From: Acidobacteriota bacterium
Lineage (GTDB): Bacteria; Acidobacteriota; Vicinamibacteria; Vicinamibacterales; 2-12-FULL-66-21
Direction: 5' to 3'
Assembly: GCA_039933435.1 (NCBI GenBank)
Contig: JBDTOB010000001.1
Span: 1-41,624, forward strand
Length of the DNA: 41,624 nt
Positions within the stretch are counted from its first letter, which is position 1, and each line of letters opens with the position of its first letter. A model generated the notes under the pieces. The model saw only the letters and a list, made by a program, of their open reading frames with translations, was not told the origin of the DNA and did not search any database. Made by a program: the position numbers and the translations under genes. This document shows positions 4,869-41,534 of the stretch, in pieces.

Positions 4869-4870
4869 CC

Positions 4871-10632: not shown

Positions 10633-11358
10633 ATGTCCAAACTCACCCTTGGTGACGCCTATCGTCGATTCGTCAAGTCGCTCGAGCAGACTCATGAACA
10701 CGAGAAGGCGATGCAGGTCGCCATCGGCGGCGAGTTCGACGCCGTCGGCGTGATTGAGCGCGAAATCCTCATCCATTACGGCCTGCCCCCCGAGGGGTTC
10801 GTAATCGACGTCGGCTGCGGCTCTGGACGACTGAGCAAGCCGCTCTCGGCCTACCTCACCGGTCCGTATCTCGGGATTGACGTCGTCCCGGAACTGGTCG
10901 CGCACGCCAGGGCTCTGGCCAGCCGCCCCGACTGGACGTTCGCAGTCGCGGCCGGACTGGAGATTCCCGCCGCCGCCGACTCTGCGGACATGGTCTGCTT
11001 CTTCTCGGTCTTCACCCACCTGCTTCACGAACAGTCCTACGTCTATCTGCGTGAAGCGAAGCGCGTGCTCAAGCCGGGCGGCAGGGCGGTGTTCTCGTTT
11101 CTCGAGTTCGCACAACCCTCGCACTGGAACATTTTCGAAAGTACGGTCGCCGACCGCGGCGCCGAGCATCTCAATGTATTCATCGGCCGTGACGCCATCC
11201 AGGCGTGGGCGGCCCACCTGCAGCTGGAAGTGGTGTCGATCGTCGGCGGCGACCAGCCTCAGACTCCGCTGCGGGAACCGCTGACGATGGAGGACGGGAC
11301 CGTGCAGACGGGATCCGCAACCCTCGGGCAGTCGCTATGTGTGCTCGGGAAACCGTAG
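10633..11358 (+). CDS. Class I SAM-dependent methyltransferase
   Basis: Motif I VIDVGCGSGRLSKPL, post-I LGIDVVPELV, DMVCFFSVFTHL, LKPGGRAVFSF. Motif spacing matches the Wzt C-terminal domain. Confidence 0.85.
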   Translation: MSKLTLGDAYRRFVKSLEQTHEHEKAMQVAIGGEFDAVGVIEREILIHYGLPPEGFVIDVGCGSGRLSKPLSAYLTGPYLGIDVVPELVAHARALASRPDWTFAVAAGLEIPAAADSADMVCFFSVFTHLLHEQSYVYLREAKRVLKPGGRAVFSFLEFAQPSHWNIFESTVADRGAEHLNVFIGRDAIQAWAAHLQLEVVSIVGGDQPQTPLREPLTMEDGTVQTGSATLGQSLCVLGKP

Positions 11359-11417
11359 CCGCCCCCTCGAGCCAGTCCCCGCGACTCCTTCAGACTGGAC
11401 GTTCAGCGTAAGCAGAC

Positions 11418-19222: not shown

Positions 19223-20622
19223 TTAGAGTCCCGGGACGTGGTGGAAATTCGGTAGGGCTCCTTCGCTAGACAAGCGAAGCGGCCATCGCGCATCTTTCCG
19301 TGAGTTCTCTCTGGCGGGGGACGAAACACACGGAGGTGTTGAGACGATGGCCAAACCAAGGATGGATCTGTCGGCGTTCGTTGGCAAGCTCCTCGAGGAG
19401 CAAGACGGGGATGTGCTGCGGGAGGGGATTCGGGTCCTGTCGCAAGCCCTGATGGAAAGCGAGGTGGCCGGGTTGATTGGCGCCGAGCGTCACGAACGGA
19501 CCGGCGACCGGACGGCGTACCGCAACGGGAGCCGGACACGGACGTGGGACACGCGCGTGGGCACGATCGAGTTGGCGATCCCGAAAGTCCGCCCGGGCAC
19601 GTATTTTCCTTCGCTGCTTCAGCCGCGACGCCGCGCGGAACACGCGTTGCTGGCGGTCGTGCAGGAAGCCTACGTGCATGGCGTCTCGACGCGGAAGGTC
19701 GACGATCTCGTGAAAGCGCTCGGTCTCGACGGCATCTCGAAGTCTGATGTCTCACGGATTTGCGGCGACCTCGATCCGATCGTCGCGGCCTTCCGGACCC
19801 GGGCGCTGACGGGCGAGCATCGGTATCTGTGGGTCGACGCGACCTACCACAAGGTTTGCGTCGATGGCCGGGTCATCAGCCAGGCCACCGTCGTGGCGAT
19901 CGGCATCACCAGCGAGGGCGACCGGCAGGTGCTCGGCATCGACGTCGGGCCGTCCGAGGACCGCGCCTTCTGGACGGCGTTCCTGCGCAGCCTGGTGAAG
20001 CGCGCCTGAAGGGTGTCCGCCTGGTGATCTCCGACGCCCATGAGGGACTGAAGGCCGCCATCAGCACCGTGCTGTCAGGGACGACATGGCAGCGCTGTCG
20101 CGTGCATTTCATGCGGAACCTCCTGGCCACGGTCCCCCACGGGGCCCGCGAGGCCATCGTCCGCACCATCTTCGCGCAGCCCGATCATGCCTCGCCGCTT
20201 GTGCAGCTCCGCAAGGTCGCAGACGGGCTCCGCAGCCGATTTGCGCGCGCCGCGGCACTCCTCGAAGAGGCCGCGGAAGACATTCTGGCTTGTCGTCATT
20301 TGCCGTTGGAGCATCAGCGCCAATTACACAGTACGAATCCACTGGAGCGTCTCAACAAGGAAATCAAGCGCCGATCCAACGTCATCGGCATCTTTCCGAA
20401 CTCGGCGGCGGTGATCCGGCTGGTCGGGGCGATCTTGCTCGAGCAGGACGATCAATGGGCCGTCGCTGAACGACGGTACTTCAGCGCGGAGTCGATGAAG
20501 CAGCTTACGACGCCGACGCTGTCCACGACGGCGCAGGAGATTCTAGCGGCGACTGCGTAGGCGAGCCGAACTCACGAATGCGTCTGCCGACTTTCCACCA
20601 CTTGACGGGACACTACCCCCCC
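19219..20622 (+). mobile_element. IS256-family insertion sequence (~1.4 kb)
   Basis: Imperfect terminal inverted repeats. Left (19224-19258): TAGAGTCCCGGGACGTGGTGGAAATTCGGTAGGGC. Reverse complement of 20581-20615: TAGTGTCCCGTCAAGTGGTGGAAAGTCGGCAGACG. 26 of the first 32 positions are identical by hand alignment. Outer boundaries are uncertain by a few nt. The element encloses an IS256-type transposase. Confidence 0.8.
19347..20560 (+). pseudogene. IS256-family transposase, disrupted by a 1-nt frameshift near 20003-20006
   Basis: ORF 19347..20009 ends ..FWTAFLRSLVKRA*. The protein continues in the -1 frame as LKGVRLVISDAHEGLKAAI..WQRCRVHFMRN..TNPLERLNKEIKRR. Intact family members read ..LVKRGLKGV.. 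The sequence cgcgcctgaagg, versus expected cgcggcctgaagg, implies loss of one G. DDE residues lie in WVDATY, VISDAH and NPLERLN. Confidence 0.8.
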
Positions 20623-20624
20623 GG

Positions 20625-20783
20625 GTCGCCCCGATCATCCTCGACGACTACCGCTGGCTCGGCTACGCGCCGCAGAAGGAAGCGATGGACGTCTTCGTCG
20701 CCAGCGTCGGCTGCGAGATCCTGACCCTGCCTAGCGGCCAGGGACTGCTGCTGAAGCCGCCGGGAGGGAAAGCGCTCCTTTAG
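20625..20783 (+). pseudogene. TylF-like methyltransferase remnant, right (C-terminal) part
   Basis: VAPIILDDYRWLGYAPQKEAMDVFVASVGCEILTLPSGQGLLLKPPGGKALL* begins directly after the IS256 right end. The (I/V)(I/L)-DDY motif and C-terminal beta-strands are typical of the TylF/Methyltransf_24 family. Confidence 0.5.
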
Positions 20784-20929
20784 AGGCGACTCGTTGACCG
20801 ACGCGCCATCAACCGCCCCAACCCTGGCACATGAGAAGCCGACGTGTTGAATGCCCGAAGGCTCGCGATGATGTCGCGAGGCGATCGAGATGGGCGCGGA
20901 CGACAATCAGTCTTCGACCGCCGCTCCGC

Positions 20930-21964
20930 CTACTTGCGGACCCACAGCGCCTCGAAAAATTGATCCTGCACGGCGTCAGGACGATTGAAGCGCGGCTGCC
21001 ACGCCGGCCCCATCCGGTAGGCGTCGCGAGCGATGGTGATCTGGTCCAGGGTGTTGGTCGACACCTGCCACTGCTTCAGATAAATCGCCCGCGTCGTCGC
21101 CGTGCCCATCAGCTCGAGGTAATGAGCGATCTGTTCCTGGCGCATCTCCCCCAGGGAACTGATCGACACGAACACCTCGACCAGCTGCGGCGGCAGCAGC
21201 GCCAGCTGGTTCGGGGTGAAGAAGCAGACGTCGGCGGCCGCGATCTCGGCTTCGACGTCCTCAAACCGATCGATATGGCGGAACCGGAACACCCTGCGCC
21301 CGGGCAGCACCGCCGGCAGGTAGTGCTGCGCCACGTGCAGCGCCGGGGGGATGTCGAAGATGAGATACCGGCACGGCAGGGTCTGCAGGAGCACGTACGC
21401 CAGCCGACCATAGCCGGCGCCGAGCTCGGCAATTACCGGGTTGGGCCCCATCCCAGCTTCAGCGACGAGGGTGTTGCGCTCGCGCACCGAGTTGGCCAAA
21501 TCCTGCGAAACGGCGCGGCCGTCGAGAGTGATGCGAATCGGATTCCCCTCCGCCGGTTCCGCGAGCCTGTCGAAGACGCCCTCTGGATCGCGCCGTTTGG
21601 TGAAGGAACAGAGCAGCGCTACGAACAGCGCATAGGTGTCGCGCGTGTCGCGCTCCAGCAGCGGATTGGCGGCGAAGAACCCCTCGAGAAACGGCTCGGG
21701 CTCCATGTCGACACGCAGCGGCGACAGGTCCGGGGCGGCGGCCCAGTCGGCGAGGACGTTGCGGAACTGGTTGTCTGAAAAATCGGTCGGCAGCCAGTTG
21801 AAATAGTTCTGGTTGACCGTTCGCTTGAAGTGCTCGAGCCCGTGCCGCCCGATCTGGTCGAGATTGAGGCGGTTGAAATGCTCCCAGAATGCAGAGGGAC
21901 GATAGACGGCCGGAGCCCGGTCCATCTCGTCGAACATCTCGGCCATGGAATAATCCTGTGGCAC
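20930..21964 (-). CDS. Putative sugar O-methyltransferase-like SAM-dependent methyltransferase
   Basis: GTG at 21964 lies 9 nt after GGGGGAG. 344 aa. N-terminal YRPSAFWEHFN..NYFNWLP region, then glycine-rich SAM motif IAELGAGYGRLAYVL, and IFDIPPAL. The family assignment is from memory of 'putative sugar O-methyltransferase' proteins and is tentative. Confidence 0.6.
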   Translation of the reverse strand: MPQDYSMAEMFDEMDRAPAVYRPSAFWEHFNRLNLDQIGRHGLEHFKRTVNQNYFNWLPTDFSDNQFRNVLADWAAAPDLSPLRVDMEPEPFLEGFFAANPLLERDTRDTYALFVALLCSFTKRRDPEGVFDRLAEPAEGNPIRITLDGRAVSQDLANSVRERNTLVAEAGMGPNPVIAELGAGYGRLAYVLLQTLPCRYLIFDIPPALHVAQHYLPAVLPGRRVFRFRHIDRFEDVEAEIAAADVCFFTPNQLALLPPQLVEVFVSISSLGEMRQEQIAHYLELMGTATTRAIYLKQWQVSTNTLDQITIARDAYRMGPAWQPRFNRPDAVQDQFFEALWVRK

Positions 21965-22041
21965 TTTGTGTCACTCCCCCGAACCAAGAATCACGGCGGG
22001 GTGTGGCGGCGAAACGGCTCCGGCATCGAGTAGCCCAACGC

Positions 22042-23271
22042 TCATCGAGGAAACCAATCGCGCGCCTTGACCCACGCAAGCCGTGTTTTCCAGAACAGGC
22101 TGCGCTCCATGTTCGCCGTTGTGTCAAGCGCCGCGGAGAGGCGCGATGCGAGATGCTCCATCTCCGCCCGGCTGCTCAACAGCTGCCCGCAAAGCTGTTC
22201 CTTTTCGGCTTCGAGGCCGGCGAGCTTGGTGCGGGCGGCCTCCCGCTCGCTGACACTTCCCTTCAGGGCCGGGCTCAGCGAACGCAGGTATTCGGCGACG
22301 GCGCGCCCGTCGGACCGAAGATCCTGACCCGGCCGGTAGCGCCAGTCAGCGATGACCGTCCGATAGAGCGAAAGCAGTTCATCGACGGCCGCGTCGCGCC
22401 CTGCGGTCGCCCGGATTCCGCCGGACACCGCCGCCGCATCGGCAGGATCGTAGCGATGGATCTCGGCCATGAGCCTGGCAGGCGTCAAACCGCTGCCCAG
22501 GGCGCGGATCCCGAAGTTCAGTCGGCGCAGCCTGTCGACATTCGACGTCGTCACCATCGGGCCCATGCCATTCGCGCCGACGAGGACGACGGCCGCGCCG
22601 ACCGCAAGAGCTTCGAGCGCAGAACGTGCCTTCGCGAACACGATGTCATACCCGCCCAGCACGGTTTCCGACACCACCGACGACCCATGCCCAAGCCCCG
22701 CTCCATCGAGGGAAACGCCGGCCTGGGCACACGCCTCCCTTACGACCGCTCCGTGGGGTCCGTTCTCATTGCAGAACAACAAGCCCCGCACCGGCCGTGG
22801 CGGAAGCGGCGAACGCTGCGGAAACCTCGCCAGATCGACGAAGTTCAGAAGCACCCGTACCCGTTCGTCCGGGATGCCGCCTTCACACACCAGCCGATCG
22901 CGACAGGTGTCGTCGACGGCGACGTATTGCAGAATGCTCGGGAATCGCGGCGCGGCTTCTTCCCAGGGCAGCCAGCCATGGCACACGTAGATGGCCGGAG
23001 TTCCGGCAAAGTGCAACACCGCCGTCATCGTCTCGAGGTGATGGTGGCCGTGAATGACGTCCGGGCTCGCGGCGAGCCTGTCGAGATCGTCGATCACCGG
23101 AATTGATGCCGCCCGGATCTCGGCCGCAACACGCCCGAGCGCTGGGCTGTACACGATTGGCCTATGGCCCCGCGCGAGGAGCGCGGTGGCGAGATCGCGG
23201 ACGTACAACTCCGAACCGGCGCGCGCCGACAGGTTGTGGTTGGTAATCAGTATGGTCAGGGCGTCTGTCAA
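22042..23271 (-). CDS. Glycosyltransferase, GT-B fold (GT4-type) with ~80-aa C-terminal coiled-coil tail
   Basis: TTG start at 23271 overlaps the upstream stop (TTGA). N-terminus ILITNHNLSARAGSELYVRDLATALLARGH. C-terminal heptad-like stretch EREAARTKLAGLEAEKEQLCGQLLSSRAEMEHLASRLSAAL. Confidence 0.75.
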   Translation of the reverse strand: MTDALTILITNHNLSARAGSELYVRDLATALLARGHRPIVYSPALGRVAAEIRAASIPVIDDLDRLAASPDVIHGHHHLETMTAVLHFAGTPAIYVCHGWLPWEEAAPRFPSILQYVAVDDTCRDRLVCEGGIPDERVRVLLNFVDLARFPQRSPLPPRPVRGLLFCNENGPHGAVVREACAQAGVSLDGAGLGHGSSVVSETVLGGYDIVFAKARSALEALAVGAAVVLVGANGMGPMVTTSNVDRLRRLNFGIRALGSGLTPARLMAEIHRYDPADAAAVSGGIRATAGRDAAVDELLSLYRTVIADWRYRPGQDLRSDGRAVAEYLRSLSPALKGSVSEREAARTKLAGLEAEKEQLCGQLLSSRAEMEHLASRLSAALDTTANMERSLFWKTRLAWVKARDWFPR

Positions 23272-24131
23272 CGCGAGCCGTCCCCCGTGCGCTGCAGAAC
23301 CTCCGAGAGCGGCAGAACGTGCTCGTGGTATCTGATCACGTGCGTGTAGGTCCCGGCGTCGACACGCTTTTCACCGTACTGCTCGTACTGGGGCGGAACC
23401 TTCGGGTCCCGCACCTGCGCGAAGTCACCAACACGCTGAAAGTATTCCTTCCCGAATGCATCGACGCCCCATGCATTCAGTGCAGCCGTGACTTCGCCGG
23501 CCATCTCGGCGTACCGGCGCGCGACCCGCAGTTTGCGCGCGAGCGCTGCCTCGTCCAGCGAGAGAGAAACGGCATCGCTCACGTCGCCGCCCGGCTGATC
23601 CGGTCGGCCGACAAGATTGAACGCGAAGTTTTCGACCGGCTTCTTGTCAATCCAGGTGGCCATCCGTACAGCGGCATCGATCACGAGCCTGCACACATCG
23701 TGGGTCGGGTTGTATCCCTCGGCGGCATCTCCGACTACGCAGTGGATGTCATCGTCGACGAGGGCACGCGCAAGCTCGCCGGCCAATCCCGTGAACACTG
23801 AATACCTATGATTCAGTATCGCGCGATAGAAAGCTGCGTCGCTGAACCGCCCGAAGATCGGGCCGCAAGTAGCACCCGCGCCCCGAACGACGGTGGCGGT
23901 CGAGGGCAGCCTGGACGCGGTGGTGCGGCCGGAGCCGTCGGTGAGAACGAAGACACGGGGACGCGCCCGCTCCAGCCACCCGTGCACGCGCAGCTCATGC
24001 CCGGGATGTGCGACGACGAGAGCGGCTGGCCCGACGGGGAGGGCCTGCCGGAGAGTTGACGCGCTCGTCGCGTTCATCGGTCGCGCGTGCGCAATGCCTC
24101 GAAACCGTTTTTCCGATACGTTCATGTCCAT
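23268..24131 (-). CDS. LmbE/PIG-L-like (de-N-acetylase fold) protein
   Basis: Start chosen at ATG 24131 (MDMNVSEK), 4 nt after GGTGGGGG; in-frame alternatives run up to GTG 24335. LVVAHPGHE occupies the place of the family motif AHPDDE. Other matches: VFVLTDGSG and EGYNPTHDVC (HxxH-like metal site). Confidence 0.5.
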   Translation of the reverse strand: MDMNVSEKRFRGIAHARPMNATSASTLRQALPVGPAALVVAHPGHELRVHGWLERARPRVFVLTDGSGRTTASRLPSTATVVRGAGATCGPIFGRFSDAAFYRAILNHRYSVFTGLAGELARALVDDDIHCVVGDAAEGYNPTHDVCRLVIDAAVRMATWIDKKPVENFAFNLVGRPDQPGGDVSDAVSLSLDEAALARKLRVARRYAEMAGEVTAALNAWGVDAFGKEYFQRVGDFAQVRDPKVPPQYEQYGEKRVDAGTYTHVIRYHEHVLPLSEVLQRTGDGSR

Positions 24132-24341
24132 TTCGCCCCCACCGCCCATCACGTCTGTCCCAGGTGTCACTCCCGATCGCGCGTCGCTCAGATCGAAACT
24201 CCGGAGCGGTAGTTCTTCGCAGAATCGGTTGCGCGGCACATCTGCAGGGACAGGTTCCGGAATGGTGGTCGTAAGATAGACCGCGGGCCGGTGAATCGCA
24301 ACCAGGAACCTGACGCGAATGGCCCGCCGGATCACCGTCGA

Positions 24342-25253
24342 TCAGGCTTCACGGCCTCGCTCGGTGCGCCACCACTCAATCGTTTCCGCGAGCCCACGGT
24401 CGAGCGACACCGCCGGGTGCCAGCCGACTTCGTCGCGGATCCTGGTAACGTCCGCGGTCAGCCGCGGCGGATCGTGCGGCGGCGGCGGGCGGGCGCCCAG
24501 CCGGATCAACGATTCGGCCTGCAGCAACTGTCCGATGCGGCGCACCACGTCGGCCACAGCGGCCGGGCTGCCGGAGGCGATGTTGACCGGCCCTTCCACA
24601 TCGCTTGCAAGGATGGCGGCGAAGGCGTCGGCGACGTCCTGGACATGCAGGAAATCCCGCACCTGGGTGCCCGCCGAGCACTGCGCCTCGCGCCCCGCCA
24701 GCAGCGCCAGAATCACCGACGGCACCAGACGGTCCGGATGCTCCAAGGGGCCGTAGAGATGGAAGACCCGACCCCACGACGCCGACAGACGGCCGCGCGC
24801 AAATCCCTCGAGCACCGCGTGAAAAGCGTGCTTGGCGCTGCCGTAGAGCGTCCCCGGGCGAAGCCGGGTCGTCCGCTCATCGCAATCATCCGCTGCCACC
24901 GCATACTCGGCGCACGAGCCGGCGCCGACGAAGCGCTCACCGCCCTGGTCGGCAAACGCCCGCAGCAGCTCGATGCTCACCTGCACCCAGGAGAGGTTCT
25001 GCGGTGACGTCCAGAACTCCCCCGGCGTCGCGCACCACGCCAGGTGCAGGAGATGCGTCGGCCGGACGGTCTCGATCAGCCGGGCGCCAGCTCCCGGCAC
25101 CAGCAGATCGGCCTGGTGCCACTCGGCCACGCCGGCCGCCGCCGGCCGCGCCCGGGAGCTGACCGCATGCACCTCGAACGGCAGGGCGCCGAGCGGCCGC
25201 AGGCAATGGCGTCCGATGAAGCCGCTCGCGCCCGTCAGCAGCACCCGCGTCAT
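24342..25253 (-). CDS. NAD(P)-dependent extended SDR (NDP-sugar epimerase/reductase); probable NDP-4-ketohexose reductase
   Basis: ATG overlaps the upstream stop (ATGA). Motifs: VLLTGASGFIGRH and catalytic YGSAK. The operon position after the epimerase suggests the reductase role. Confidence 0.8.
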   Translation of the reverse strand: MTRVLLTGASGFIGRHCLRPLGALPFEVHAVSSRARPAAAGVAEWHQADLLVPGAGARLIETVRPTHLLHLAWCATPGEFWTSPQNLSWVQVSIELLRAFADQGGERFVGAGSCAEYAVAADDCDERTTRLRPGTLYGSAKHAFHAVLEGFARGRLSASWGRVFHLYGPLEHPDRLVPSVILALLAGREAQCSAGTQVRDFLHVQDVADAFAAILASDVEGPVNIASGSPAAVADVVRRIGQLLQAESLIRLGARPPPPHDPPRLTADVTRIRDEVGWHPAVSLDRGLAETIEWWRTERGREA

Positions 25254-25780
25254 CGCTGGAAATCCGGGTAGGTTCGGTCGCGCTCGTTGATGGTGCGGGT
25301 GTCGTCCGGCCAGGCGATGCCAAAAGCGGGATCGTTCCAGCGCACGCCGCGGCCATGCTGGGGGCTGTACGCCTGGCTGATGGCGTAGAGCACCTCGCTA
25401 TCGCCGCGGAGAGTCTGGAACCCGTGGGCCAGGCCCTCCGGGATGTAGAGCATGCGGTGGTTGTCGGCGCTCAGCTCGCAGGCGACCGATTGCAGGAAGG
25501 TCGGCGAGTCGCGCCGCAGATCCAGGGCGACGTCGTAGATCGCCCCCTGGGTGCAGCGCACGATCTTGACTTCGGCCATCGGCGCCGCCTGGTAGTGCAT
25601 GCCGCGAAGCGTGCCGCGGCGCCGGTTGAACGACGCGCTCATGTGCGCCAGGCGCGGATCCAGTCCCCTGGCACGGAGCTCGTCGGGGTTCCAGAGGCGC
25701 GCAAAGAAGCCGCGCTCATCCTCCACCCGCTCCGGCTCGATGATGCAAACCCCGGCAATCTCCGTGTCGTGGAAAATCAT
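25250..25780 (-). CDS. NDP-4-keto-6-deoxyhexose 3,5-epimerase (RmlC-like cupin)
   Basis: 176 aa. Motifs: EDERGFFARLW, GTLRGMHYQ, KIVRCTQGAIYDVALDLR, YIPEGLAHGF. Nucleotide specificity (CDP or dTDP) cannot be read from the sequence. Confidence 0.85.
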   Translation of the reverse strand: MIFHDTEIAGVCIIEPERVEDERGFFARLWNPDELRARGLDPRLAHMSASFNRRRGTLRGMHYQAAPMAEVKIVRCTQGAIYDVALDLRRDSPTFLQSVACELSADNHRMLYIPEGLAHGFQTLRGDSEVLYAISQAYSPQHGRGVRWNDPAFGIAWPDDTRTINERDRTYPDFQR

Positions 25781-25788
25781 GCCCCGGC

Positions 25789-27015
25789 CTAGACGACGCG
25801 AACCTCCGGGACCGGGATGATGAAGCGCCCGCCGGTGCGCCGGAATTCCTCCTGCTGTTCGAGGATCTCCTCTGCGAAATTCCAGGTGAGGAGCAGCACC
25901 AGATCCGGGCGCTCCTGCAGCAGGCGCGCCGTCTCGTAGATCGGCAGGTGCACGCCCGGCATGTAGCGGCCCTGCTTGTGAGGGCTGCGATCGACGACAT
26001 AGTCGAGGACGTCCCGGCCGATGCCGAAATAGTTGAGCAGCGTGCTGCCCTTCGCCGCGGCGCCATAGGCGGCGATCCGCTTGCCTTCGGCCTTGAGCCC
26101 GGTCAGCAGCGACACCAGCGACGATTTCAACTCGTTGACGGCGCCGGCGAAGCCCTCGTAGAACTTGAGGTTGGTCACTCCCCAGGCCGCTTCCTCGGCC
26201 AGCAGGCGGCCGACCGACGGCGACGCGGCAGGCCCCGTCGTGAGCCCGACCGTCACCCGCAGCGAGCCGCCATGAATCGCAATCCGTTCGACGTCCAGCA
26301 CTCGCAGCCCCCAGGTCGTGAAGAGCCGGTCGAGCGCGGTCAGCGAGAAATAGCTCAGGTGTTCGTGATAGATGGTGTCGAACTCGCGGTGATCGATGAG
26401 GTCCTTGACGTACGGCACCTCGATGATCGCCACACCGTCGTCTTTCAGCAGCGCCGCCAGCCCCCGTGCAAAGCCGGGGAGGTCCGGCACGTGCGCCATC
26501 ACGTTGTTGGCGTGGACCACGTCCGCCGCGTGGCCGTCGGCGCGCAGCGACCGCGCCAGCGACTCGCCGAAGAAGTCCACCACGGTGCGGATGCCGTTGG
26601 CCTCGGCGACCCTGGCGATGTTGGCCGCCGGCTCGATGCCCAGCACCGGCACGCCGGCGCGGCGGTAGTACTGCAGCAGGTAGCCGTCGTTGCTGGCAAC
26701 CTCGACGACGAGGCTGTCGCCGCCGAGCCCGCGGCTGCGAATCACCTGGCCGGCTAGGGTTTCGGCGTGCCGCAGCATGGTGTCGCTGAACGACGAAAAA
26801 TACGCGTAATCCGAGAACAGCCTGGCGGGCGGCACCGTCTCGGTGATCTGCACGAGAGTGCAGTCCTCGCAGAAGACCAGGTCGAGCGGATACCTGGCTT
26901 CGTCGGCCTCGAGATCATTCGGCCCGAGCAATGCGTTGGCCAGCGGTGTCTGGCCGAGCGACAGCACCAACGGCACCCGGGTCCCGCCGCACGCCCGGCA
27001 GCAAAACCGGGTCAT
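25789..27015 (-). CDS. NDP-hexose C-methyltransferase (TylCIII/KijD1-type: Cys4 zinc motif, SAM domain, C-terminal domain)
   Basis: ATG 27015 overlaps the rfbG-like stop (ATGA). CCRACGG..(x)..FCEDCTLVQ gives four Cys. SAM-binding region: [14 protein letters not shown]. The C-terminal domain ends [12 protein letters not shown]. The tracked ORF upstream of 27015 is out-of-frame shadow. Confidence 0.8.
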
Positions 27016-28004
27016 CGGCTCCCCCCGAGGAACGTCCGGTACCAGTCGATGGTACGGGCCAGACCGTCGCCGAGGTCGTAGAGCGGATGCCAGCCGAGCA
27101 GCCGGCGCGCCTTCTCGGCGCTGAGATACTGATGGCGGATTTCGTGCGTCGCCAGATTGTGAACGTCCGGCTCGAGGGGCGAGTCCATCAGTTGCAGAAT
27201 GCGGCGCGTCAGATCGAGCACGGTGACCTGGAGCTCGTTGGAAAAGTTGAACGCATGCCCTCGCAGCTCTGGCGACGCGGCCAGCCGCTCGGCGAGCAGG
27301 GTGTACACGGCGGCACCATCCTCGACGTAGAAGTAATCGCGGATGTAATTGCCGTCGGATCGAATCACCGGCCGCTCGCCGCGGATGGCCGACCGTATGG
27401 TACCCGGGACGATGCGATTCCAGTTGAGATCGCCGCCGCCATAGAAATTGCCGCAGCGCGTGATCACAACCGGAGTGCCATAGGTATTGGCATAGGTCTG
27501 GGCGATCAAGTCCGCGCACGACTTGCTGACGTCGTAGGGATGGGTGCCCTTGAGCGCCGTTTGCTCGTCGTAGGGCAGCACCTTGGACTCGCCATACGCC
27601 TTGTCGGACGAGGCCAAGACGATTTGTTTGACGGACGGGCTGCGGCGGCAGGCCTCCAGCAGCGCCCACGTGCCCCTGATGTTCGAATCAAAGGTCGAGA
27701 CCGGATTGCGATTGGCGATGCCGACGATGGTCTGGGCGGCAAGATGGATCACCGTGTCCACCTCGTGCTCGCCCAGCAGACGCTCGAGCGCCGCCTGCTG
27801 CCGCACATCGCCGCGGACCACGGTCACACCGCCGATGGCGCCGCTGCGCACCAGTTCGCTCTGCGGCACCCAGTCGCGCACAAGGGTGATGACGTTGGCT
27901 TCGAGCGCCTGGAGGCGCTTCACCAGCCAGCCGCCGACCAGCCCCGTGGCTCCGGTGACCAGGGTCGGGCGATCGCGCCAGAACGCCCGGGACGCCGCGG
28001 TCAT
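27012..28004 (-). CDS. rfbG: CDP-glucose 4,6-dehydratase-like SDR
   Basis: ATG 28004 lies 4 nt after GGAG. Motifs: [56 protein letters not shown]. It lies in an operon with rfbF. Confidence 0.75.
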
Positions 28005-28012
28005 CGGCTCCG

Positions 28013-28462
28013 TCACCGCGCCACCGTGACCGTGATCGACCCGAGATCGCGGGTGGCGCCCGCGCCGTCGACGGCCTGCGCGAGCAGCGTGTGCGCGCCA
28101 GGCTCCAGCCTCAGCTGCGCCGTCCAGCCGTGGCGGTCCGACTGCCGCGAAAACGCCGGCACCGCGGCGGAGACGTCCGGGCGGTCCACCGTCAGCTCGG
28201 TCGATTGCACGAAATGACTGTCGACATAGAGGCGAACGGCGGCCACGCCGACGTCGTCCATGGCCCATCCCGACGCCGTCAGCTCGCGCGCCACGGACGC
28301 CTTGTCGGCTGGAGCGTCGAGGACCCCGAAGGGCAGCTGATTGGTGGCCTCCGGAGGAGGACAGCCGGCGATGCCGGACGGCGCATTGCGGCTCCCGCAG
28401 CCGCCGACCACCATCATCAGCGCGGCGAACACCATGCCGAAGCGACTTACCACTTTTTCCAT
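28013..28462 (-). CDS. Small lipoprotein carrying one 'GWA...RPDV' beta-sandwich module
   Basis: ATG 28462 follows GGGGGAGCGGA and overlaps the rfbF 3' end by 16 nt. Signal and lipobox: [21 protein letters not shown]|C. The body ([46 protein letters not shown]) resembles the C-terminal modules of the 947- and 907-aa proteins. Confidence 0.75.
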
Positions 28463-29241
28463 TCCGCTCCCCCTGCGTCCCACAGCTGGTTCAGCTGCTG
28501 GTAATCCCGGTATGTGTCCATGCACTGCCAGAAGCCACTGTGCTGATACACCGACAGCTGCCCTTCCGCCGCCAGGCGCTCCAACGGCTCGCGCTCCAAG
28601 ATGCATCCGGCGTCGTCGCTGAGGTAGTCCAGCATCCGGCGGTCGCAGACGAAGAAGCCGCCATTGATCAGCCCGTCGTGGGTCTGGGGTTTCTCGCTAA
28701 ACTGCTGAACCCGGCCGCCGCTGACGAGCAGCTCGCCGAAGCGCGAGCTCGGATGCACGCCGGTGACGGTGGCGATGGTGTCGGCCTGCGCGTGATGATC
28801 GAGCAGCCGGCTGAGATCGACGTCGCTGACCCCGTCGCCATAGGTCAGCATGAACGGGTTGCTGGTGATGTAGCGGCTGGCCCGCTTGACGCGGCCGCCG
28901 GTCATGGTCTGCAGACCGGTGTCGATCAGCGTCACGCGCCAGCCGTTCTCCTCGTGCCCGTCGTGAATCGTAATCGACTCGCGCTTCCCCAACTCGACCG
29001 TGAAATCGTTGTTCATCGCCTCGTAGTTGAGGAAGTAATCCTTGATGATCTCCCCCTTGTAGCCGAGGCAGACAATGAAGTCGGTGAATCCGTGCGCAGC
29101 GTAGCTTTTCATGATGTGCCAGAGGATCGGCCGGCCGCCGATCTCGACCATTGGCTTAGGACGGTATTCCGTCTCCTCGCGCATCCGTGTCCCCATGCCG
29201 CCGCAGAGGATCACTGTCTGGACGTTGTTCTTTTTCAACAC
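28447..29241 (-). CDS. rfbF: Glucose-1-phosphate cytidylyltransferase
   Basis: GTG 29241 lies 1 nt after the upstream TGA. Motifs: [70 protein letters not shown]. Confidence 0.9.
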
Positions 29242-29242
29242 A

Positions 29243-31444
29243 TCACCTGTCGTTGCCGGGGTCGGCGACGCGACAATCCGCGAAGTCGCGGCTCTGATTG
29301 GGGTTGTAGTAGGGATCGCGATCGAGGTCTCCCTGCCAGAGCTCGCGCATCGCCGCGATCTCGTCTTCGCGCTGGGCGCGCATCCCGAAGCTGGCGGACT
29401 CATGATGATACAGCCGCGCGTAGGGCGTGAACACGATCCGATACCCGGCACGGCGCACCCGCAGACAGAAGTCGACGTCGTTGAAATCCACTCGGAGGCG
29501 CGGGTTGAAGCCGCCGACCTCGGCATAAATGGTCCGTCGCGTCAGCAGGCAGGCACCGGTCACCGCCGAGCAGTTTCGTATGGCATGCGCGATCCCGTCG
29601 CACCCCCGGGTTCCGCCGGGCTGCTGGTGGAGCAGGTGGGCGGCGACGCCGGACACCCCGATCGCCACCCCGGCGTGCTGCAAGCGACCGTCAGGATAGA
29701 ACAACTTCGCTCCAACCGCCCCCACCTCTTTCAGTTGCGCGTATTCTACCATCGCCGACAGCCAGTCCCGATTGATTGGCTCGACGTCGTCATTCAACAA
29801 CAGGACATACGGCGACGCGGCTCTGACGACCGCGAAATTGATTTTTTCCGAGAAGTTGAACGGCGGCTGATACGAGTAGCTGACGCGCGTGTGAGGCAGG
29901 TGATCGAGGAGCCTTCGGGCCTGCTCGGGCAGGTAGCCGTTGTCCGCCACCAGCACCTCATAGTCCTCGTAAGACGTGCGCTCGAGGAGCCCCCGAAGGC
30001 AACGCACGAGCAGCGGTTCGCTTTCGCCGGGAGCCGAACGCCCGTCGGTGGGAATGACGATGGTGACGCGGGCGCCGGGCAGGATGCGGTGACGCGTCCG
30101 CCGGACGCCCGCCACCGCCCCGTCGCTGACCTCGACGTCGGCGCCCTGCTCCCGCCAGTAGTCCGCGAGCGCCCGCGCCGCGTCGGGATGGGTGGAGGCG
30201 CTGAGGTCCTCGTTGCCGGAGGCCCGGTGGTAGAGCACGCGCGGGACGTGGCCGACGCGGTGGCGCGAAGCGACGCGCAGGGCCAGATCGTAATCGAGCG
30301 CCCCGGCGAACGCCTCCCGGTAGCCTCCGGTCGAGCGGACGACAGTACGCCGCACGACCGTCAGCCGGCCGAAGTACATCCGCGACTGCAGGTATTCCGG
30401 CGACCAGCCGGGCTTGAAATGGGGACTCTGATGCGCGCCGGACTCGGTCTGCTCGTCTTCGTCCGAATAGAGCAGGTCGAGATCGGGTTCGTCGTTCAGC
30501 CGCGCCGCGATTTCGTGCAGCGCCTGCGGGGCCAGCCCATCGCCGGCCGCCAGCGTCCCGACAAAGTCCGCGGCAGTGGCGTCGAGCGCGGCGTTCAAGG
30601 CAGCCACCGGCGTGGCTGCGTCGGGCAGCCTCCGGCGATGGCGCGGCGGCAGGACGTCCTCGGTCAACGCCGACCATGCCGCAGCCGATAGCCAGACTTC
30701 CCAGTCCTGATAAATCTGGCTCAGCAGCGAGTGGACCGTCCGGGTCAGCTGTTCGTCCGCACCGTCGCCGAGAAAGAGCGCGATCCTGGGCCGGACGGCC
30801 AGCCCCGCCGCGCGCAGGCTGACCAGCTCCGCGGCGCCGGGGGCGCTCCTGGCGAACCAGCGCGCGTAGGCGGCCGGCCCCGCGGCTGCGTCGTGCTGCC
30901 GCAACCGCTGGAGTGTGCCGCGCACACCGTAGGCTCGCAGCGCGAACGCGACCGTCCGGCGCAGCTCGCGCGGGACCTTTCGCCAAAGAAGCGTCGGCTC
31001 TCCCCACCAGACGTTCAGCGCTGGAGCGCCTGATTCGGCGCGCGCCTGGAGGGTGATCGCCTGAGGTCCGGCGGGTATTGGCAGGCGCAGCCGCTGCCAG
31101 CGTCCGGGCCCGGTTTCGACGACGCTGTCCGTTGCCTGAGCCGAGCGGCCGTCAGCGGCGACCGCCGCCGCGAAGCGGACCGTCGCGGAGGGATCGCCGA
31201 CCACCGCACAATGGACGACGAGGACGGCGCGCCGCGGCATCCTGGTGCGAAACACCAGCTCCGAGGGCAGCGCCGCGTGCAATGCCTCACGGGAAACGCC
31301 CCCGAGGGTGACGAGCTCGGGCGCGACGGCCGAGGCGTCCGACGCTCCTTCGATGAGCAGCTCGAGGGGTCGCCGTTGGAAAAACAGGGTGCGGAGCGTC
31401 GACCTGCCGCGATGAAACAAATGATGGAGCAACGCGCCGGCCAT
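29243..31444 (-). CDS. Multidomain glycosyltransferase: N-terminal beta-rich domain plus GT2 A-B didomain (A-type domain lacks DxD)
   Basis: ATG 31444 is preferred over TTG 31480 because it leaves a divergent intergenic gap. A domain: IALFLGDG..LAAGDGL..LLYSDEDE..HFKPGWSPE. B domain: VTIVIPTDG..VLVADNG..FNFSEKINF..LLLNDDVE..GAVGAKLFYPDGRLQHAG..NDVDFCLR. Confidence 0.8.
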   Translation of the reverse strand: MAGALLHHLFHRGRSTLRTLFFQRRPLELLIEGASDASAVAPELVTLGGVSREALHAALPSELVFRTRMPRRAVLVVHCAVVGDPSATVRFAAAVAADGRSAQATDSVVETGPGRWQRLRLPIPAGPQAITLQARAESGAPALNVWWGEPTLLWRKVPRELRRTVAFALRAYGVRGTLQRLRQHDAAAGPAAYARWFARSAPGAAELVSLRAAGLAVRPRIALFLGDGADEQLTRTVHSLLSQIYQDWEVWLSAAAWSALTEDVLPPRHRRRLPDAATPVAALNAALDATAADFVGTLAAGDGLAPQALHEIAARLNDEPDLDLLYSDEDEQTESGAHQSPHFKPGWSPEYLQSRMYFGRLTVVRRTVVRSTGGYREAFAGALDYDLALRVASRHRVGHVPRVLYHRASGNEDLSASTHPDAARALADYWREQGADVEVSDGAVAGVRRTRHRILPGARVTIVIPTDGRSAPGESEPLLVRCLRGLLERTSYEDYEVLVADNGYLPEQARRLLDHLPHTRVSYSYQPPFNFSEKINFAVVRAASPYVLLLNDDVEPINRDWLSAMVEYAQLKEVGAVGAKLFYPDGRLQHAGVAIGVSGVAAHLLHQQPGGTRGCDGIAHAIRNCSAVTGACLLTRRTIYAEVGGFNPRLRVDFNDVDFCLRVRRAGYRIVFTPYARLYHHESASFGMRAQREDEIAAMRELWQGDLDRDPYYNPNQSRDFADCRVADPGNDR

Positions 31445-31491
31445 TCTAGCACCCGCCTGCTTCCGACATTTCGACGGCAACCAAGCTTCCA

Positions 31492-34400
31492 GTGGACCAC
31501 CATGCTATGCTTGTCCCCCGCTTGGGACTGCCTTCAATTGATCTCAGACGCGCCCGCCGGCTGATCGCGCCGGACGGCACCCGCCGTCATCGTGCGCTCG
31601 GCCGGATCCTTCGCTCCGCTGGTGCGAGGACGTCGTCGCGGCAGGCGGCTAGGCCGCCGCTCGTCAGCCTGCTGCTGACAGGGGCCCGCACGACGGCGGC
31701 TGATCTGCTCGGCACCATCCTTTCCGTTCAGGCGCAGACCGAACCTCGCTGGGAATTGTGGCTGACAGGTTTGGCCGGGGACACACCCGCAGAGGTGGCG
31801 GCTGACCCCCGGGTAAAGGTCGCGCCGCCCGCCACCGGAGAAACGGCGGCCGCTCTCAATGCCGCGCTGGCGGCTGCGCGTGGCACCTGGGTCGGCTGCC
31901 TCAGCGGTGGTGATCGGCTCGCGCCAGACGCCCTCAGGCTCCTCACCGCCGCGGCGGCGCGCCCGCAGGCTGACGCGGTATACAGCGACGAGGAGACGCT
32001 CCAGGATGTCGGCCCCCCGGGCGGCACCTACTCGAAGCCGGACTGGTCTCCGGAGCTGCTGCTTTCGTTCCCTTACATCAGCCGGTTGTCGCTGCTCCGC
32101 CGCGACCGCGTCGTCGCGCTAGGGGGATGGCGGCAGGCCACCGTCGCGGCGGAAGAGTACGAGCTCCATCTCGGCATCGCGCGCGCCGGCGGCGCGATTC
32201 GGCGCGTCGATCAGATCCTTTACTTCCGCCAGGGACGGCATGCGGCGGAGGTCTACAGTACGCCCGCCGCAGTCGACGCCCGGCGGACGGCGGTAGAGGC
32301 GCATCTCGCCGCGACCAGCACCGCCGCCGCGATCGAGCCTCGACCCGACGCGGGCCGGCTGCGCGTCCGGCCGGTGATCGCCGGGCAGCCGCTGGTCAGC
32401 ATCGTGATTGCGACCCGCGACCGCGTTCAGCTGCTCAGACAGTGCGTCGAGAGCATCCGCGCCACGACCGACGCGTCGGTGGCCTACGAGATCATCGTCG
32501 CCGACAACGACAGCGCCGAAGCCGAGACGCTCGAATACTTCGAAGTCTCGGGGCTGCGGATCGTCCACGTCCCCGGCCCCTTCAACTTTTCGGCGATCAA
32601 CAACGCCGCGGCACGCGTCGCGCGTGGCTCGTTGCTGCTCTTTCTCAATAACGACACCGAAGTCATCGACCCGCGATGGCTGGCCGCCATGGCGGAGTGG
32701 GCGCTGCAACCGGCGATCGGATGCGTCGGTGCGAAGCTGCTCTTCGGCGACGGGAGGATTCAGCACGTCGGCGTGACGCTCCATGACGGATCCGCCCACC
32801 ACCCGTTCTACGGAGAGCGGCCGTCGGCGCGGAACTGGCTCGACACCGAGCTGGTCCGCAACTACAGTGCCGTGACCGCCGCGTGCGTTATGGTCCGGCG
32901 CGCCGTCTTCGAGGAGGTCGGCGGCTTCGCGGAGACCCTTCCGATCGCCTACAACGATGTGGACCTCTGCGTCCGGGTGCTGCGCGCCGGGTATCGCAAC
33001 CTCTACACGCCGTACGCCGTGCTCTACCATCACGAGTCGTCCAGCCGCGCGCCTGGCGTGACTATCGAAGACAATCAACGCCTGCGTGCGGCCGTCGGAG
33101 AGCTCGTCTGGTCGGACCCGCTCTGCCCGGCGCTGCAGCGCATGGCGGCCCCGCGAACCGGCGCCGCCGCGAACGTCGTCTCGCGTCAGCTGCAGCGGGC
33201 GGCGCGAGTCCTGCGGCGGGGTACCGAGGTGCTGGCAGCTGTGGCCTGGCGCCGCACCTCGCTGCGAAGTATCGCGGAGACCGCGACCCACCCCCCGGAC
33301 TCGGAGATGGTGCGATGGCTGGACGGCGTGGAGATCGGCGGCCAGACCCGCATTGCCCTCTTCATGCATCCCGCCAGCAGCCGCACCTACCGCACTACAC
33401 CAGGGCCCGGAGGACGCTTCGACGCCCGGATCTGCCTGCTGCCGGAGGTCTGGAAGAAGAACGAGGGAGGCGTGGTTTTTACGGCGGCGGTCACCGCTGG
33501 CGTCCAGACCAGCCAGCGAGAGTGGGTGCTGAACCCCGGTGCCAGACCGGCAGATCGCCGCTGGGTTCACGTCCGCCTGCCGTTGTCCGCTTACGCCGGC
33601 CGGGACGTCGAGATTACGCTCTCAACCGGACTGGCCGCCGGCGCCGGCCCCGGCCACGCATGGGCGGCGTGGGGCGATCCTGTGCTGCTCGAGCGCAAGC
33701 GAGCCGCGGACGTCGTGCGGCGACAGGCACAGGTGGTCAAGGCGCTCGGCCTCCGAGGCGCCGCCCGTCGATACGCCCGGCTGCTGCGGTCCGGCGCCCA
33801 CGGCCAGGCAGCTCCCTTCGTCTACGACGCCTGGTTCAAGCAGCAGGCGCTCGCCAGCCCTGAGGAGCTGATGCGGCGCCTGGCCGCCTGCGCCTACCGG
33901 CCCCGCATCAGCGTTGTGACGCCGGTCTTCAACACCGATCCGAAATGGCTGCGGCACTGCGTTGACTCGGTGCGCGCCCAGCGATACACCGATTGGGAGC
34001 TGTGCCTTGGAGACGATGGGTCCACGAATCCGCGTACCCGCGAGGCGCTCGCCGGTCTCGAAGCCGTCGATCCGCGCATCAAGGTGACGACGCTGGAACG
34101 GAACGGCGGCATTTCCGCCGCGTCGAATGCCGCCCTGGCGCTGGCCACGGGGGAATTCATCGCCCTGCTCGACCATGACGACGAGCTCGCACCCGACGCC
34201 CTGGCTGAGGTCGTCATCGCGCTGAATGCGCATCCCGAAGCCGACTTCATCTACACCGACGAAGACAAGCTCGAATTCGACGGCGCCCACGTGGAGCCGT
34301 TCTTCAAGCCTGATTGGTCACCCGAGTATCTGCGCTCTACCATGTACGTCGGGCATCTTGGCGTGCACCGGCGTTCGCTGGTCGAACGGATCGGCGGGTT

Positions 34401-40655: not shown

Positions 40656-41534
40656 TCAGGCGTCGTCGTCGAGAAGTCCCCGCAGGTAGTGCCCGTACGG
40701 GCTGCCCTTCATCGCGCCAGAGAGGCGCTCGACATCCGCGGCAGTGATGTAGCGAAGCCGGTAGGCAATCTCCTCCGGACAGCCGATCATCTGGCCCTGC
40801 CGCTCCTCCACGGCCTGCACGAAGTTGGTCGCCTGGACGAGCGACTCGTGCGTCCCCGTATCCAGCCAGGCGACTCCTCTGGGCAGACGCTCGACGCACA
40901 ACCGCTGCCGCGTCAGGTAGACCCGATTGACGTCGGTGATCTCCAGCTCTCCGCGTGGGGACGGCCGGAGTCCTTCGGCGATGCTGACCACGTCGTTGTC
41001 GAAGAAATAAAGCCCGGTCACGGCGAAGGTGGATTTGGGATGGGACGGCTTCTCCTCCAGGCCGACCACGCGTCCCTCGGCGTCGAACTCGACCACACCG
41101 TAGCGCTCGGGGTCCCGCACCCGGTATCCGAAGACCGTTGCTCCGGTTTCGTGCGCGGCCGCTGCCCGAAGGTTGTCGGACAGGTGAGCCCCGTAGAAGA
41201 TGTTGTCGCCAAGCGCCAGCGAGACGCGGTCCGTGCCGATGAAGTCGCGGCCGATGAGGAAGGCCTGGGCGAGGCCGTCGGGCGACGGTTGCACGGCGTA
41301 GCGGATGCTCAATCCGAGATCGAGGCCATCGCCTAGCAGGCGCTTGAAGCCGTCCTGTTCATGCGGCGTGGTGATCACCAGAATTTCGCGGATCCCGGCC
41401 AGCATCAGCGTCGAGAGCGGATAATAAATGAGGGGTTTGTTGTAGATCGGAATCAGCTGCTTGCTGATCCCGCGAGTCACCGGATGGAGCCGCGAACCGG
41501 ATCCACCCGCCAGAATGATGCCTTTAAGGGACAC
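40656..41534 (-). CDS. rfbA: Glucose-1-phosphate thymidylyltransferase
   Basis: GTG 41534 is preceded by GGAGGA. Motifs: [98 protein letters not shown]. Confidence 0.95.

Follow-up and report, generated by a model that had tools for sequence, protein, structure and literature searches.

A widespread cassette, probably for synthesis of a CDP-linked, C-methyl-branched 6-deoxyhexose, in an Acidobacteriota surface-polysaccharide locus

In the late steps of dTDP-L-mycarose biosynthesis, C3 methylation by TylC3 is followed by 5-epimerization through TylK and 4-ketoreduction through TylC2, and the noviose pathway, also built on a dTDP carrier, proceeds by methylation at C5. To our knowledge, all characterized members of this methyltransferase family outside the aminocoumarin NovU/CloU/CouU clade are C3-methylating, and among them AviG1 performs C3 methylation on a 2,3-dihydroxy substrate. 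CDP-sugars offer two further points of reference: CDP-6-deoxy-D-gulose synthesis in Yersinia enterocolitica O:8 involves an RmlC-like enzyme acting on a CDP-sugar, and 1960s chemistry on Azotobacter vinelandii identified CDP-vinelose (6-deoxy-3-C-methyl-2-O-methyl-L-talose), which we know as the sole chemically described CDP-linked branched sugar and for which we know of no assigned gene. A. vinelandii is reported to carry an rfbF-rfbG-rfbC cluster (Hausman 1998, as cited in PMC3769361). In Synechocystis, slr0983-85 and slr1610 are annotated as rfbF, rfbG, rfbC and a 'putative C-3 methyltransferase' (PMC3769361), and deletion of slr0985 leaves rhamnose unaffected (PMC12285223), which fits a separate CDP pathway. 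The Sinorhizobium meliloti pSymB genes SMb21416-18 are likewise annotated as ddhA, ddhB and 'NDP-hexose 3-C-methyltransferase' (PMC4053727), and the virenose of Coxiella burnetii LPS, 6-deoxy-3-C-methylgulose, has been ascribed to a predicted NDP-hexose 3-C-methyltransferase with an NDP-4-keto-6-deoxyhexose as its substrate (PMC3539893). Our literature search found no paper defining the product of such a cassette, and a search on the SMb locus tags retrieved the comparative-genomics study PMC4053727 alone.

We analyzed a 41,624-nucleotide window from an Acidobacteriota bacterium (assembly GCA_039933435.1, contig JBDTOB010000001.1, positions 1-41,624, forward strand), in which six consecutive minus-strand genes, read from 29241 to 24342, encode a glucose-1-phosphate cytidylyltransferase (rfbF), a lipoprotein, a 4,6-dehydratase, a C-methyltransferase, an RmlC-type epimerase and a short-chain dehydrogenase/reductase (SDR). 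Domain, family and PDB matches bear out the gene identities given for this interval in the original prediction, and the operon structure is likewise as stated there. The rfbF gene starts with GTG 2 nt past the stop of an upstream glycosyltransferase gene, and at least three of the five internal junctions overlap: the lipoprotein ATG lies within a 16-nt overlap with the rfbF stop, the dehydratase start shares a GTGA with the lipoprotein stop, and ATGA overlaps join the methyltransferase start to the dehydratase stop and the SDR start to the epimerase stop, while 8 nt separate the methyltransferase and epimerase genes. The operon is an unexceptional example of a common and already annotated cassette, and it most likely converts CDP-glucose to a 6-deoxy sugar with a methyl branch, destined for a surface polysaccharide.

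Entry into a CDP pathway is indicated by the first enzyme of the series, RfbF (28447..29241, minus strand), which scores 352.9 bits against the TIGR02623 equivalog (cut-off 300.25) and aligns over its full length with Salmonella RfbF (PDB 1tzf; 3.8e-81, residues 9-264 on 5-258). It is by family an RfbF/DdhA cytidylyltransferase, for which the use of CTP and glucose-1-phosphate for CDP-glucose synthesis is predicted. The NDP-glucose 4,6-dehydratase (27012..28016, minus strand) belongs to a distinct clade nearest RfbG/DdhB; its 198.8 bits against TIGR02622 lie below the curated equivalog threshold of 278.45, but this is still its top-scoring family, with the dTDP-glucose dehydratase family second at 168.5 bits, and its top PDB matches are the two CDP-glucose 4,6-dehydratases 1rkx (4e-45) and 1wvg (4e-37). 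The dehydratase SSDKAY segment aligns with TSDKCY of both structures, as do Y161 and K165 of the YxxxK motif, and none of these residues varies among the 66 aligned clade sequences, comprising the window protein and its relatives. The Asp-Lys pair of SDK(A/C)Y is thus shared with the solved CDP enzymes, in place of which dTDP and GDP dehydratases carry Asp-Glu. Furthermore, the dehydratase gene adjoins rfbF in the window, in the two closest relatives (loci L198 and L199) and in most loci with this dehydratase clade. A 3,6-dideoxyhexose route was also considered and rejected, since no DegT/RfbH-type gene is found among the scanned ORFs.

The branching enzyme itself (25789..27015, minus strand) is a SAM-dependent NDP-hexose C-methyltransferase of the TylC3/KijD1/TcaB9 family, with the zinc-binding PF08421 (78 bits), class I methyltransferase PF13489 (69 bits) and C-terminal PF08484 (202 bits) domains in succession. 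It matches TylC3 (4rv9; 5e-95, 42% identity), KijD1 (5t64; 1e-93, 41%) and TcaB9 (3ndi; 6e-87, 38%), all three of which are C3 enzymes. Cys6/9/49/52, Tyr70, His175, Tyr216, Glu218 and His219 are identical to the aligned TcaB9 residues, and 79-80 of the 80 sequences aligned, the window protein included, retain the Cys4 site and the Tyr/His/Tyr-x-Glu-His set; following the TcaB9 literature, we take the equivalents of Tyr70, His175, Tyr216, Glu218 and His219 to be catalytic. The Asn-Asp pair at 109-110, common to TcaB9, KijD1 and relatives, is also present. In addition, the window enzyme shares an identical EFDTIYHEH segment with TylC3, which acts on a 3-hydroxy substrate, whereas the KijD1 and TcaB9 enzymes of 3-amino sugars have FDQIYDEH. 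The carbon methylated would most likely be C3.

Downstream, the RmlC-type 4-keto-6-deoxyhexose epimerase (25250..25780, minus strand; C5 or C3/C5) matches PF00908 (208 bits) and TIGR01221 (168.6 bits; cut-off 155.75), with RmlC 3ryk (7e-42), the Yersinia putative epimerase 5buv (1e-26) and NovW 2c0z (7e-25) among its PDB matches, and its His62, Lys72, Tyr132 and Asp168 do not vary across the 94 sequences aligned, again counting the window protein with its relatives. From its genomic context, its substrate would be a CDP- rather than a dTDP-sugar. The extended SDR (24342..25253, minus strand) matches PF01370 at 1e-40 and conserves TGxxGxxG, Ser113 and Y137xxxK141 in 52 aligned sequences; its PDB matches are distant (3vps, 5e-22, and the GDP-4-keto-6-deoxymannose reductases 2pk3, 4e-14, and 6x3b) and include no close characterized relative, and pathway logic would make it the 4-ketoreductase of the last step. 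The remaining gene encodes a predicted 149-aa lipoprotein with an Ig-like domain (28013..28462, minus strand), a signal peptide, a VGGC lipobox and a weak Big_7 match (22.7 bits; cut-off 24.1). Its homologue in the two closest relatives (63% identical, lipobox MAGC) occupies the equivalent position and retains the lipobox cysteine, but the other ~195 cassette loci have no counterpart; the lipoprotein gene is an insertion between rfbF and the dehydratase gene, outside the core cassette.

That the methyltransferase belongs to a CDP pathway and not to a dTDP one, as originally predicted, holds across genomes. Flanks of 3 kb or more were available for 55 related loci; in 45 of these rfbF is no more than 3 kb from the methyltransferase gene, and rmlA is that near in none of them. 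Moreover, at 24 loci with the methyltransferase a canonical RfbG takes the place of the window-type dehydratase, exemplified by the copy at locus L011, which exceeds the TIGR02622 cut-off with 374 bits. A CDP-linked C-methyl 6-deoxyhexose pathway is thereby well supported, its CDP link resting on comparative genomics. The order F-G-MT-C-(SDR), that is, cytidylyltransferase, dehydratase, methyltransferase, epimerase and variably SDR, is seen again in Acidobacteriota, Planctomycetota, Chloroflexota, Cyanobacteriota, Myxococcota and Verrucomicrobiota as well as in one archaeon, and the operon is therefore conserved far beyond chance. An RmlC-type gene is within 3 kb at only 38 of the 55 related loci and an orthologous SDR is present at 21, so different genomes may make different end products. 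The expectation that such a locus would be unusual did not survive this survey: relatives occur in 590 or more GTDB species genomes, the best 120 of the 8000 scored homologues of the methyltransferase are all at least 66% identical, and the genes are already annotated in S. meliloti and Synechocystis.

The flanking genes, all on the minus strand, are consistent with polysaccharide assembly. The transcription unit opens with a GT2-family glycosyltransferase (29243..31444; PF00535/PF13641), a candidate transferase for the branched sugar, whose orthologue in the two closest relatives (62% identical) is equivalently placed. On the other side lie a conserved ORF (23268..24149, with an ambiguous start at 24149, 24131, 24125 or 24077) that matches no Pfam domain even at E<5, followed by a GT4-family glycosyltransferase (22042..23271; PF13439) overlapping it by 4 nt; both have counterparts in the same two relatives, at 64% (in the equivalent position) and 70% identity, respectively. 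Wzm/Wzt ABC transporter genes are also present within the window. The product of 20930..21964 had been proposed as a possible O-methylating enzyme, and it indeed falls in the TIGR04371/NanM-type family of putative sugar O-methyltransferases (114.5 bits, cut-off 44). This accessory decoration gene is absent from L198 and L199, but homologues adjoin the cassette in four of ~200 other loci (L010, L011, L064 and L104), those of L011 and L104 being confirmed as TIGR04371. The window copy adjoins a frameshifted IS256 transposase gene.

We place moderate confidence in a five-enzyme route that, judging from the encoded families, would lead from glucose-1-phosphate and CTP to a CDP-6-deoxy-3-C-methyl-L-hexose; its substrates, step order, methylated carbon and stereochemistry, the L configuration included, are those we infer for the pathway. 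RfbF would form CDP-D-glucose, which the RfbG-like dehydratase would convert to CDP-4-keto-6-deoxy-D-glucose. The TylC3-type enzyme would then transfer a methyl group from SAM to a carbon beside the 4-keto group, most likely C3, creating a tertiary alcohol, so that C3 would already be quaternary when the RmlC-type epimerase inverts C5. Reduction of the 4-keto group by the SDR would yield the final CDP-6-deoxy-3-C-methyl-L-hexose in talo or manno configuration. The GT2 and GT4 enzymes could incorporate this sugar into a polysaccharide for export through the Wzm/Wzt transporter, and the TIGR04371 enzyme may contribute an O-methyl group.

The same CDP pathway could alternatively be completed by NovU-like methylation at C5 after epimerization, giving a CDP-5-C-methyl (gem-dimethyl) 6-deoxyhexose. 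Such a reading draws on a gene content equal to the noviose set NovT/NovW/NovU/NovS and on the NovW match of the epimerase, but we consider it unlikely given the C3 specificity of the three solved methyltransferase relatives and the motif shared with TylC3. Moreover, we know of 5-C-methyl hexoses from aminocoumarin antibiotics only, whereas the 3-C-methyl-6-deoxyhexoses include constituents of several LPS types and the sugar of CDP-vinelose.

It is also conceivable that the methyltransferase acts on a dTDP- or GDP-4-keto sugar made elsewhere, while the rfbF, rfbG, rfbC and SDR products supply a plain CDP-6-deoxyhexose (6-deoxygulose or 6-deoxytalose). RfbF, RfbG, an RmlC-like enzyme and a reductase suffice for CDP-6-deoxy-D-gulose in Y. 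enterocolitica O:8, whose genus also provides the 5buv match; the biochemically studied members of the methyltransferase family all use dTDP-sugars, and the window does contain an RmlA-like gene (40656-41534). This gene, however, lies 11 kb from the operon beyond five other genes, the methyltransferase gene is embedded between those for the dehydratase and the epimerase and overlaps the former, and the neighborhood counts for rfbF and rmlA given above point the same way, making a non-CDP substrate very unlikely. We regard O- or N-methylation by the protein, or a function other than methyl transfer, as least probable, indeed hardly credible: our analysis found no evidence for either, the protein's three domains occur together specifically in sugar C-methyltransferases, its PF13489 domain is intact with Asn-Asp 109-110 and the proposed base residues kept, and O-methylation has a separate candidate gene nearby. 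We retain C3 methylation of a CDP-4-keto-6-deoxy sugar as the preferred reading.

As the enzymes all come from known families and the chemistry is textbook deoxysugar chemistry, the window locus would on its own hold no surprise for a specialist. It points, rather, to a CDP-linked C-methyltransferase cassette of very wide distribution that has stood annotated in both S. meliloti and Synechocystis for more than ten years, is harbored by tractable hosts and bears on the surface sugars of many environmental bacteria. Tentatively, and with more doubt than confidence, we suggest that the cassette supplies the long-missing genes for CDP-vinelose-type sugars (CDP-6-deoxy-3-C-methyl-L-talose, with an O-methyl group wherever a TIGR04371 enzyme is encoded). 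If so, C-methyl-branched 6-deoxyhexoses would be common but overlooked in environmental bacterial surface glycans, given a cassette found in hundreds of species from more than ten phyla and in one archaeon.

Compared with the described systems, the locus shares with the late dTDP-L-mycarose steps, TcaB9 and KijD1 the methyltransferase family (38-42% identity) and its conserved catalytic residues, and with mycarose the proposed succession of methylation beside a 4-keto group, epimerization and reduction. Those systems use dTDP carriers and 2,6-dideoxy or 3-amino substrates within actinomycete antibiotic clusters, whereas the window operon is linked to rfbF and to a surface-polysaccharide cluster, and its substrate would retain both the 2-OH and the 3-OH. 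The dTDP-noviose pathway draws on the same four enzyme families. The first two steps, catalyzed by RfbF and a CDP-glucose 4,6-dehydratase, are those of the CDP-6-deoxy-D-gulose and CDP-3,6-dideoxyhexose pathways, but the RfbH and RfbI of the latter have no counterpart in the window, which has a C-methyltransferase instead. Coxiella virenose is similarly a 3-C-methyl-6-deoxyhexose of LPS, for which an in silico model proposes TDP or GDP rather than CDP carriers (PMC3539893). By published annotation, the Synechocystis operon also includes rfbC and lies in an ABC-transporter polysaccharide cluster, but follows the order F-G-C-MT and lacks the lipoprotein (PMC3769361). S. meliloti pSymB has rfbF, dehydratase and TylC3-family methyltransferase genes adjacent (PMC4053727). 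Its methyltransferase, with rfbF immediately upstream, is 54% identical to the window protein, but the locus has two extra methyltransferase-like paralogues, no RmlC-type gene nearby and no lipoprotein. Finally, the proposed product would resemble CDP-vinelose, a CDP-linked 3-C-methyl-6-deoxy-L-hexose in which C2 retains its configuration from glucose, and the cassette together with an O-methyltransferase could yield just such a sugar.

The six adjacent genes of the minus-strand run at 24342-29241 are tightly packed, and their order and junctions, together with the gene assignments, match the original prediction's description on every item. A GT2 gene (29243-31444, minus strand) precedes rfbF (28447-29241), whose GTG start falls 2 nt past the GT2 stop codon, and the rfbF stop is overlapped by 16 nt by the gene for a 149-aa lipoprotein with an ATG start (28013-28462). 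The dehydratase gene (27012-28016) overlaps the latter through a GTGA junction, the C-methyltransferase gene (25789-27015) follows with an ATGA overlap, the epimerase gene (25250-25780) comes after an 8-nt gap, and the SDR gene (24342-25253) again overlaps its predecessor by ATGA. Three further genes continue downstream in the same direction, namely a conserved ORF of unknown function (23268-24149), a GT4 glycosyltransferase gene (22042-23271) and a TIGR04371 sugar O-methyltransferase gene (20930-21964). A scan of 20400-31800 returned no promoter-like sites, and 5 terminator-like sites versus 5.9 expected.

RfbF scores 352.9 bits against the equivalog TIGR02623 (cut-off 300.25) and matches Salmonella RfbF (PDB 1tzf) end to end (E 3.8e-81). 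The top family of the dehydratase is TIGR02622 (CDP-glucose 4,6-dehydratase), at 198.8 bits under a cut-off of 278.45; its nearest solved relatives are the CDP-glucose 4,6-dehydratases of Yersinia and Salmonella (1rkx, 4e-45, and 1wvg, 4e-37), which share with it, by alignment, an S-D-K-x-Y motif and YxxxK, residues that show no variation among the 66 sequences aligned from the clade. Because of this sub-cut-off score, these relatives and these shared residues, we treat the protein as a putative member of a distinct 4,6-dehydratase clade with a CDP-type signature, and not as a certified RfbG. The C-methyltransferase carries the three domains that make up the sugar C-methyltransferase set (PF08421, PF13489 and PF08484) and shares 42% identity with TylC3, 41% with KijD1 and 38% with TcaB9. 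It has the same four zinc cysteines, Tyr, His and Tyr-x-Glu-His as TcaB9, the last three being positions that we take to form the TcaB9 active site, and all of these are retained in 79-80 of 80 aligned sequences. The epimerase exceeds the RmlC equivalog cut-off (168.6 versus 155.75 bits), with its His/Lys/Tyr/Asp set conserved in 94 of 94 aligned sequences. Finally, the SDR displays the Rossmann motif and Ser/Tyr/Lys, and we infer that it acts as the 4-ketoreductase of the pathway; its characterised relatives are all distant and include GDP-4-keto-6-deoxymannose reductases.

The key step of the argument, namely that the methyltransferase belongs to a CDP pathway, is supported by comparative genomics. 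Among the 80 most similar GTDB loci, 55 have flanks of 3 kb or more to either side of the methyltransferase gene, and within 3 kb of that gene rfbF is found in 45 of the 55, an RmlC-type gene in 38, the window-type dehydratase in 32, an orthologous SDR in 21 and rmlA in none, the commonest order being rfbF, dehydratase, methyltransferase, epimerase and SDR. Besides the window, 65 related loci have the window-type dehydratase, which shows 52-87% identity across phyla and falls under the TIGR02622 cut-off; canonical RfbG replaces it in 24 of about 197 loci, as in the related cassette locus L011, whose RfbG (1207-2244) reaches 374 bits, above that cut-off. The two dehydratase types, which look unrelated at about 30% identity, both accompany a methyltransferase of the same family. 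Enzyme families and conserved synteny therefore lend good support to the predicted operon for a CDP-linked C-methyl-6-deoxyhexose.

The best-supported route has five steps, in which CDP-glucose would be made and 4,6-dehydrated, SAM-dependent C-methylation would take place at a carbon neighbouring the 4-keto group, and epimerisation at C5 and reduction of the 4-keto group would then give a CDP-6-deoxy-C-methyl-hexose to be consumed by the neighbouring glycosyltransferases. An L configuration of the product is a reasonable proposal, and the stereochemical case for it is sound: an L-talo or L-manno product would retain the C2 configuration of glucose, with changes at C3, C4 and C5 only. A route of the 3,6-dideoxyhexose or yersiniose type was rejected because no RfbH/DegT-type gene is present among the ORFs scanned.

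Methylation at C3 is a reasonable assignment, with three arguments in its favour. The noviose pathway employs the same four enzyme families and methylates C5, and the window's CDP pathway could in principle follow the same course, as NovU does in dTDP-noviose synthesis. The solved relatives of the methyltransferase are all C3 enzymes, and its EFDTIYHEH peptide is identical to the motif of TylC3, whose substrate bears a 3-hydroxy group, whereas 3-amino-sugar enzymes carry FDQIYDEH. Moreover, 3-C-methyl-6-deoxyhexoses are known in nature from LPS and from CDP-vinelose, while 5-C-methyl sugars are, to our knowledge, limited to the aminocoumarins. We regard C5 methylation as unlikely and retain C3 as the probable position.

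The operon is embedded in a large polysaccharide locus that includes a WecA/MraY-family initiating transferase, Wzm and Wzt ABC-transporter genes (~3834-6334), several GT2 and GT4 genes, two methyltransferases and two insertion-sequence transposases, one of which, an apparently intact IS630-type enzyme with DDE_3 and HTH domains (9330-10382, minus strand), lies within the polysaccharide cluster. Two giant glycosyltransferases are encoded on the plus strand: a 2472-aa protein (11418-18836) with WsaF_N/WsaF_C (rhamnosyltransferase-like) and two GT2 domains, in which about 1000 N-terminal residues are without domain assignment, and a 1334-aa protein with four GT2 domains (31492-35496). Combined with Wzm/Wzt, these look like the machinery of an ABC-transporter-dependent polymer. 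An RmlA-like nucleotidyltransferase gene at the window edge (40656-41534, minus strand; best GTDB match 72%, in a Vicinamibacteraceae MAG) points to a supply of dTDP-rhamnose for the cluster as well. That match is the sole clue to taxonomy; with the best GTDB match of the methyltransferase at 66%, the DNA probably comes from an uncultured soil bacterium, possibly of the Acidobacteriota, that has no near relative among sequenced genomes.

The operon recurs in the closest relatives, two metagenome contigs (L198 and L199), whose versions of the five enzymes are 76-90% identical to those of the window and whose lipoprotein is 63% identical. Particular to the window are the non-canonical type of its dehydratase and this lipoprotein, whose gene lies between those of RfbF and the dehydratase and is coupled to them in translation. 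The lipoprotein has an Ig-like domain with a weak Big_7 match and is kept, along with its lipobox Cys, only in L198/L199 (L198 8545-9003); some 195 other cassette loci lack it. The conserved ORF between the SDR and GT4 genes is 64% identical in these contigs and has no Pfam match even at E<5; by eye, its AHPGHE, TDGSG and GYNPTHD motifs resemble those of PIG-L/LmbE deacetylases. The O-methyltransferase gene adjoins an IS256-family (Transposase_mut) gene that is frameshifted into two ORFs (19347-20560, plus strand). In L198/L199 both of these genes are missing, and a sulfotransferase gene (L198 13367-14635) stands between the SDR gene and the conserved ORF, which suggests that O-methyltransferase and sulfotransferase are swapped glycan decoration modules. 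TIGR04371-type homologues adjoin the cassette in 4 of about 200 other loci, including L011, where family membership was confirmed and the gene directly follows the SDR. Given its absence from the closest relatives and its rarity beside the cassette, O-methylation is therefore an optional decoration rather than a core step.

The rarity originally claimed for the locus proved wrong, as at least 590 GTDB species genomes carry a methyltransferase relative, the family counts 8000 scored homologues and the pattern had already been annotated. The best 120 of the 8000 are all at least 66% identical, the best GTDB match of the window protein stands at 66%, and the family forms 5048 clusters at 50% identity (E up to 1e-30). 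Cassette hosts span Acidobacteriota, Planctomycetota, Chloroflexota, Cyanobacteriota, Myxococcota, Verrucomicrobiota, Proteobacteria and Actinomycetota as well as one Methanomassiliicoccales archaeon. Some family members (P0148, P0152, P0176, P0199 and P0218) are fused into proteins of 700-930 aa, with the methyltransferase at either end.

Azotobacter vinelandii is the source of CDP-vinelose. A degenerate pattern built on the invariant EFDTIYHEH peptide gave no Azotobacter among the matches listed (at least 119 stretches). An A. vinelandii rfbF-rfbG-rfbC cluster is credited to Hausman 1998 where that work is cited in PMC3769361, and the tables accompanying a proteomics study of A. vinelandii feature rfbBDAC alone (Avin_15920-15950). 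The vinelose connection remains a reasonable but tentative lead. Literature on vinelose, CDP C-methyltransferases, 6-deoxy-3-C-methyl sugars and SMb2141x yielded no functional study of the cassette and no paper defining its product.

Two tractable hosts offer the nearest comparisons. SMb21416-18 on pSymB of S. meliloti 1021 are annotated as ddhA, ddhB and "NDP-hexose 3-C-methyltransferase" (PMC4053727); by tblastn, a methyltransferase 54% identical to the window's lies there with rfbF immediately upstream, and the ORF following rfbF does not register as RfbG in NCBIfam, so we do not endorse its published ddhB name. The surrounding stretch (L200; NC_003078.1 685568-704788) holds three TylC3-like paralogues near rfbF (9001-10221, 10246-11445 and 15564-16877; identity to the window protein 54%, 26% and 29%) and lacks an RmlC-type gene nearby. 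The Synechocystis PCC 6803 operon of slr0983 (rfbF), slr0984 (rfbG), slr0985 (rfbC) and slr1610 ("putative C-3 methyltransferase") sits within an ABC-transporter polysaccharide cluster, and deletion of slr1610 changes the exopolysaccharide (PMC3769361). According to work published in 2025, rhamnose synthesis is unimpaired by slr0985 deletion and slr0983 belongs to "an alternative sugar pathway" (PMC12285223). The cassette is thus not new as a genomic pattern: it is widespread, already known and biochemically uncharacterised, and the window locus is a further example of it, alongside those of S. meliloti and Synechocystis.
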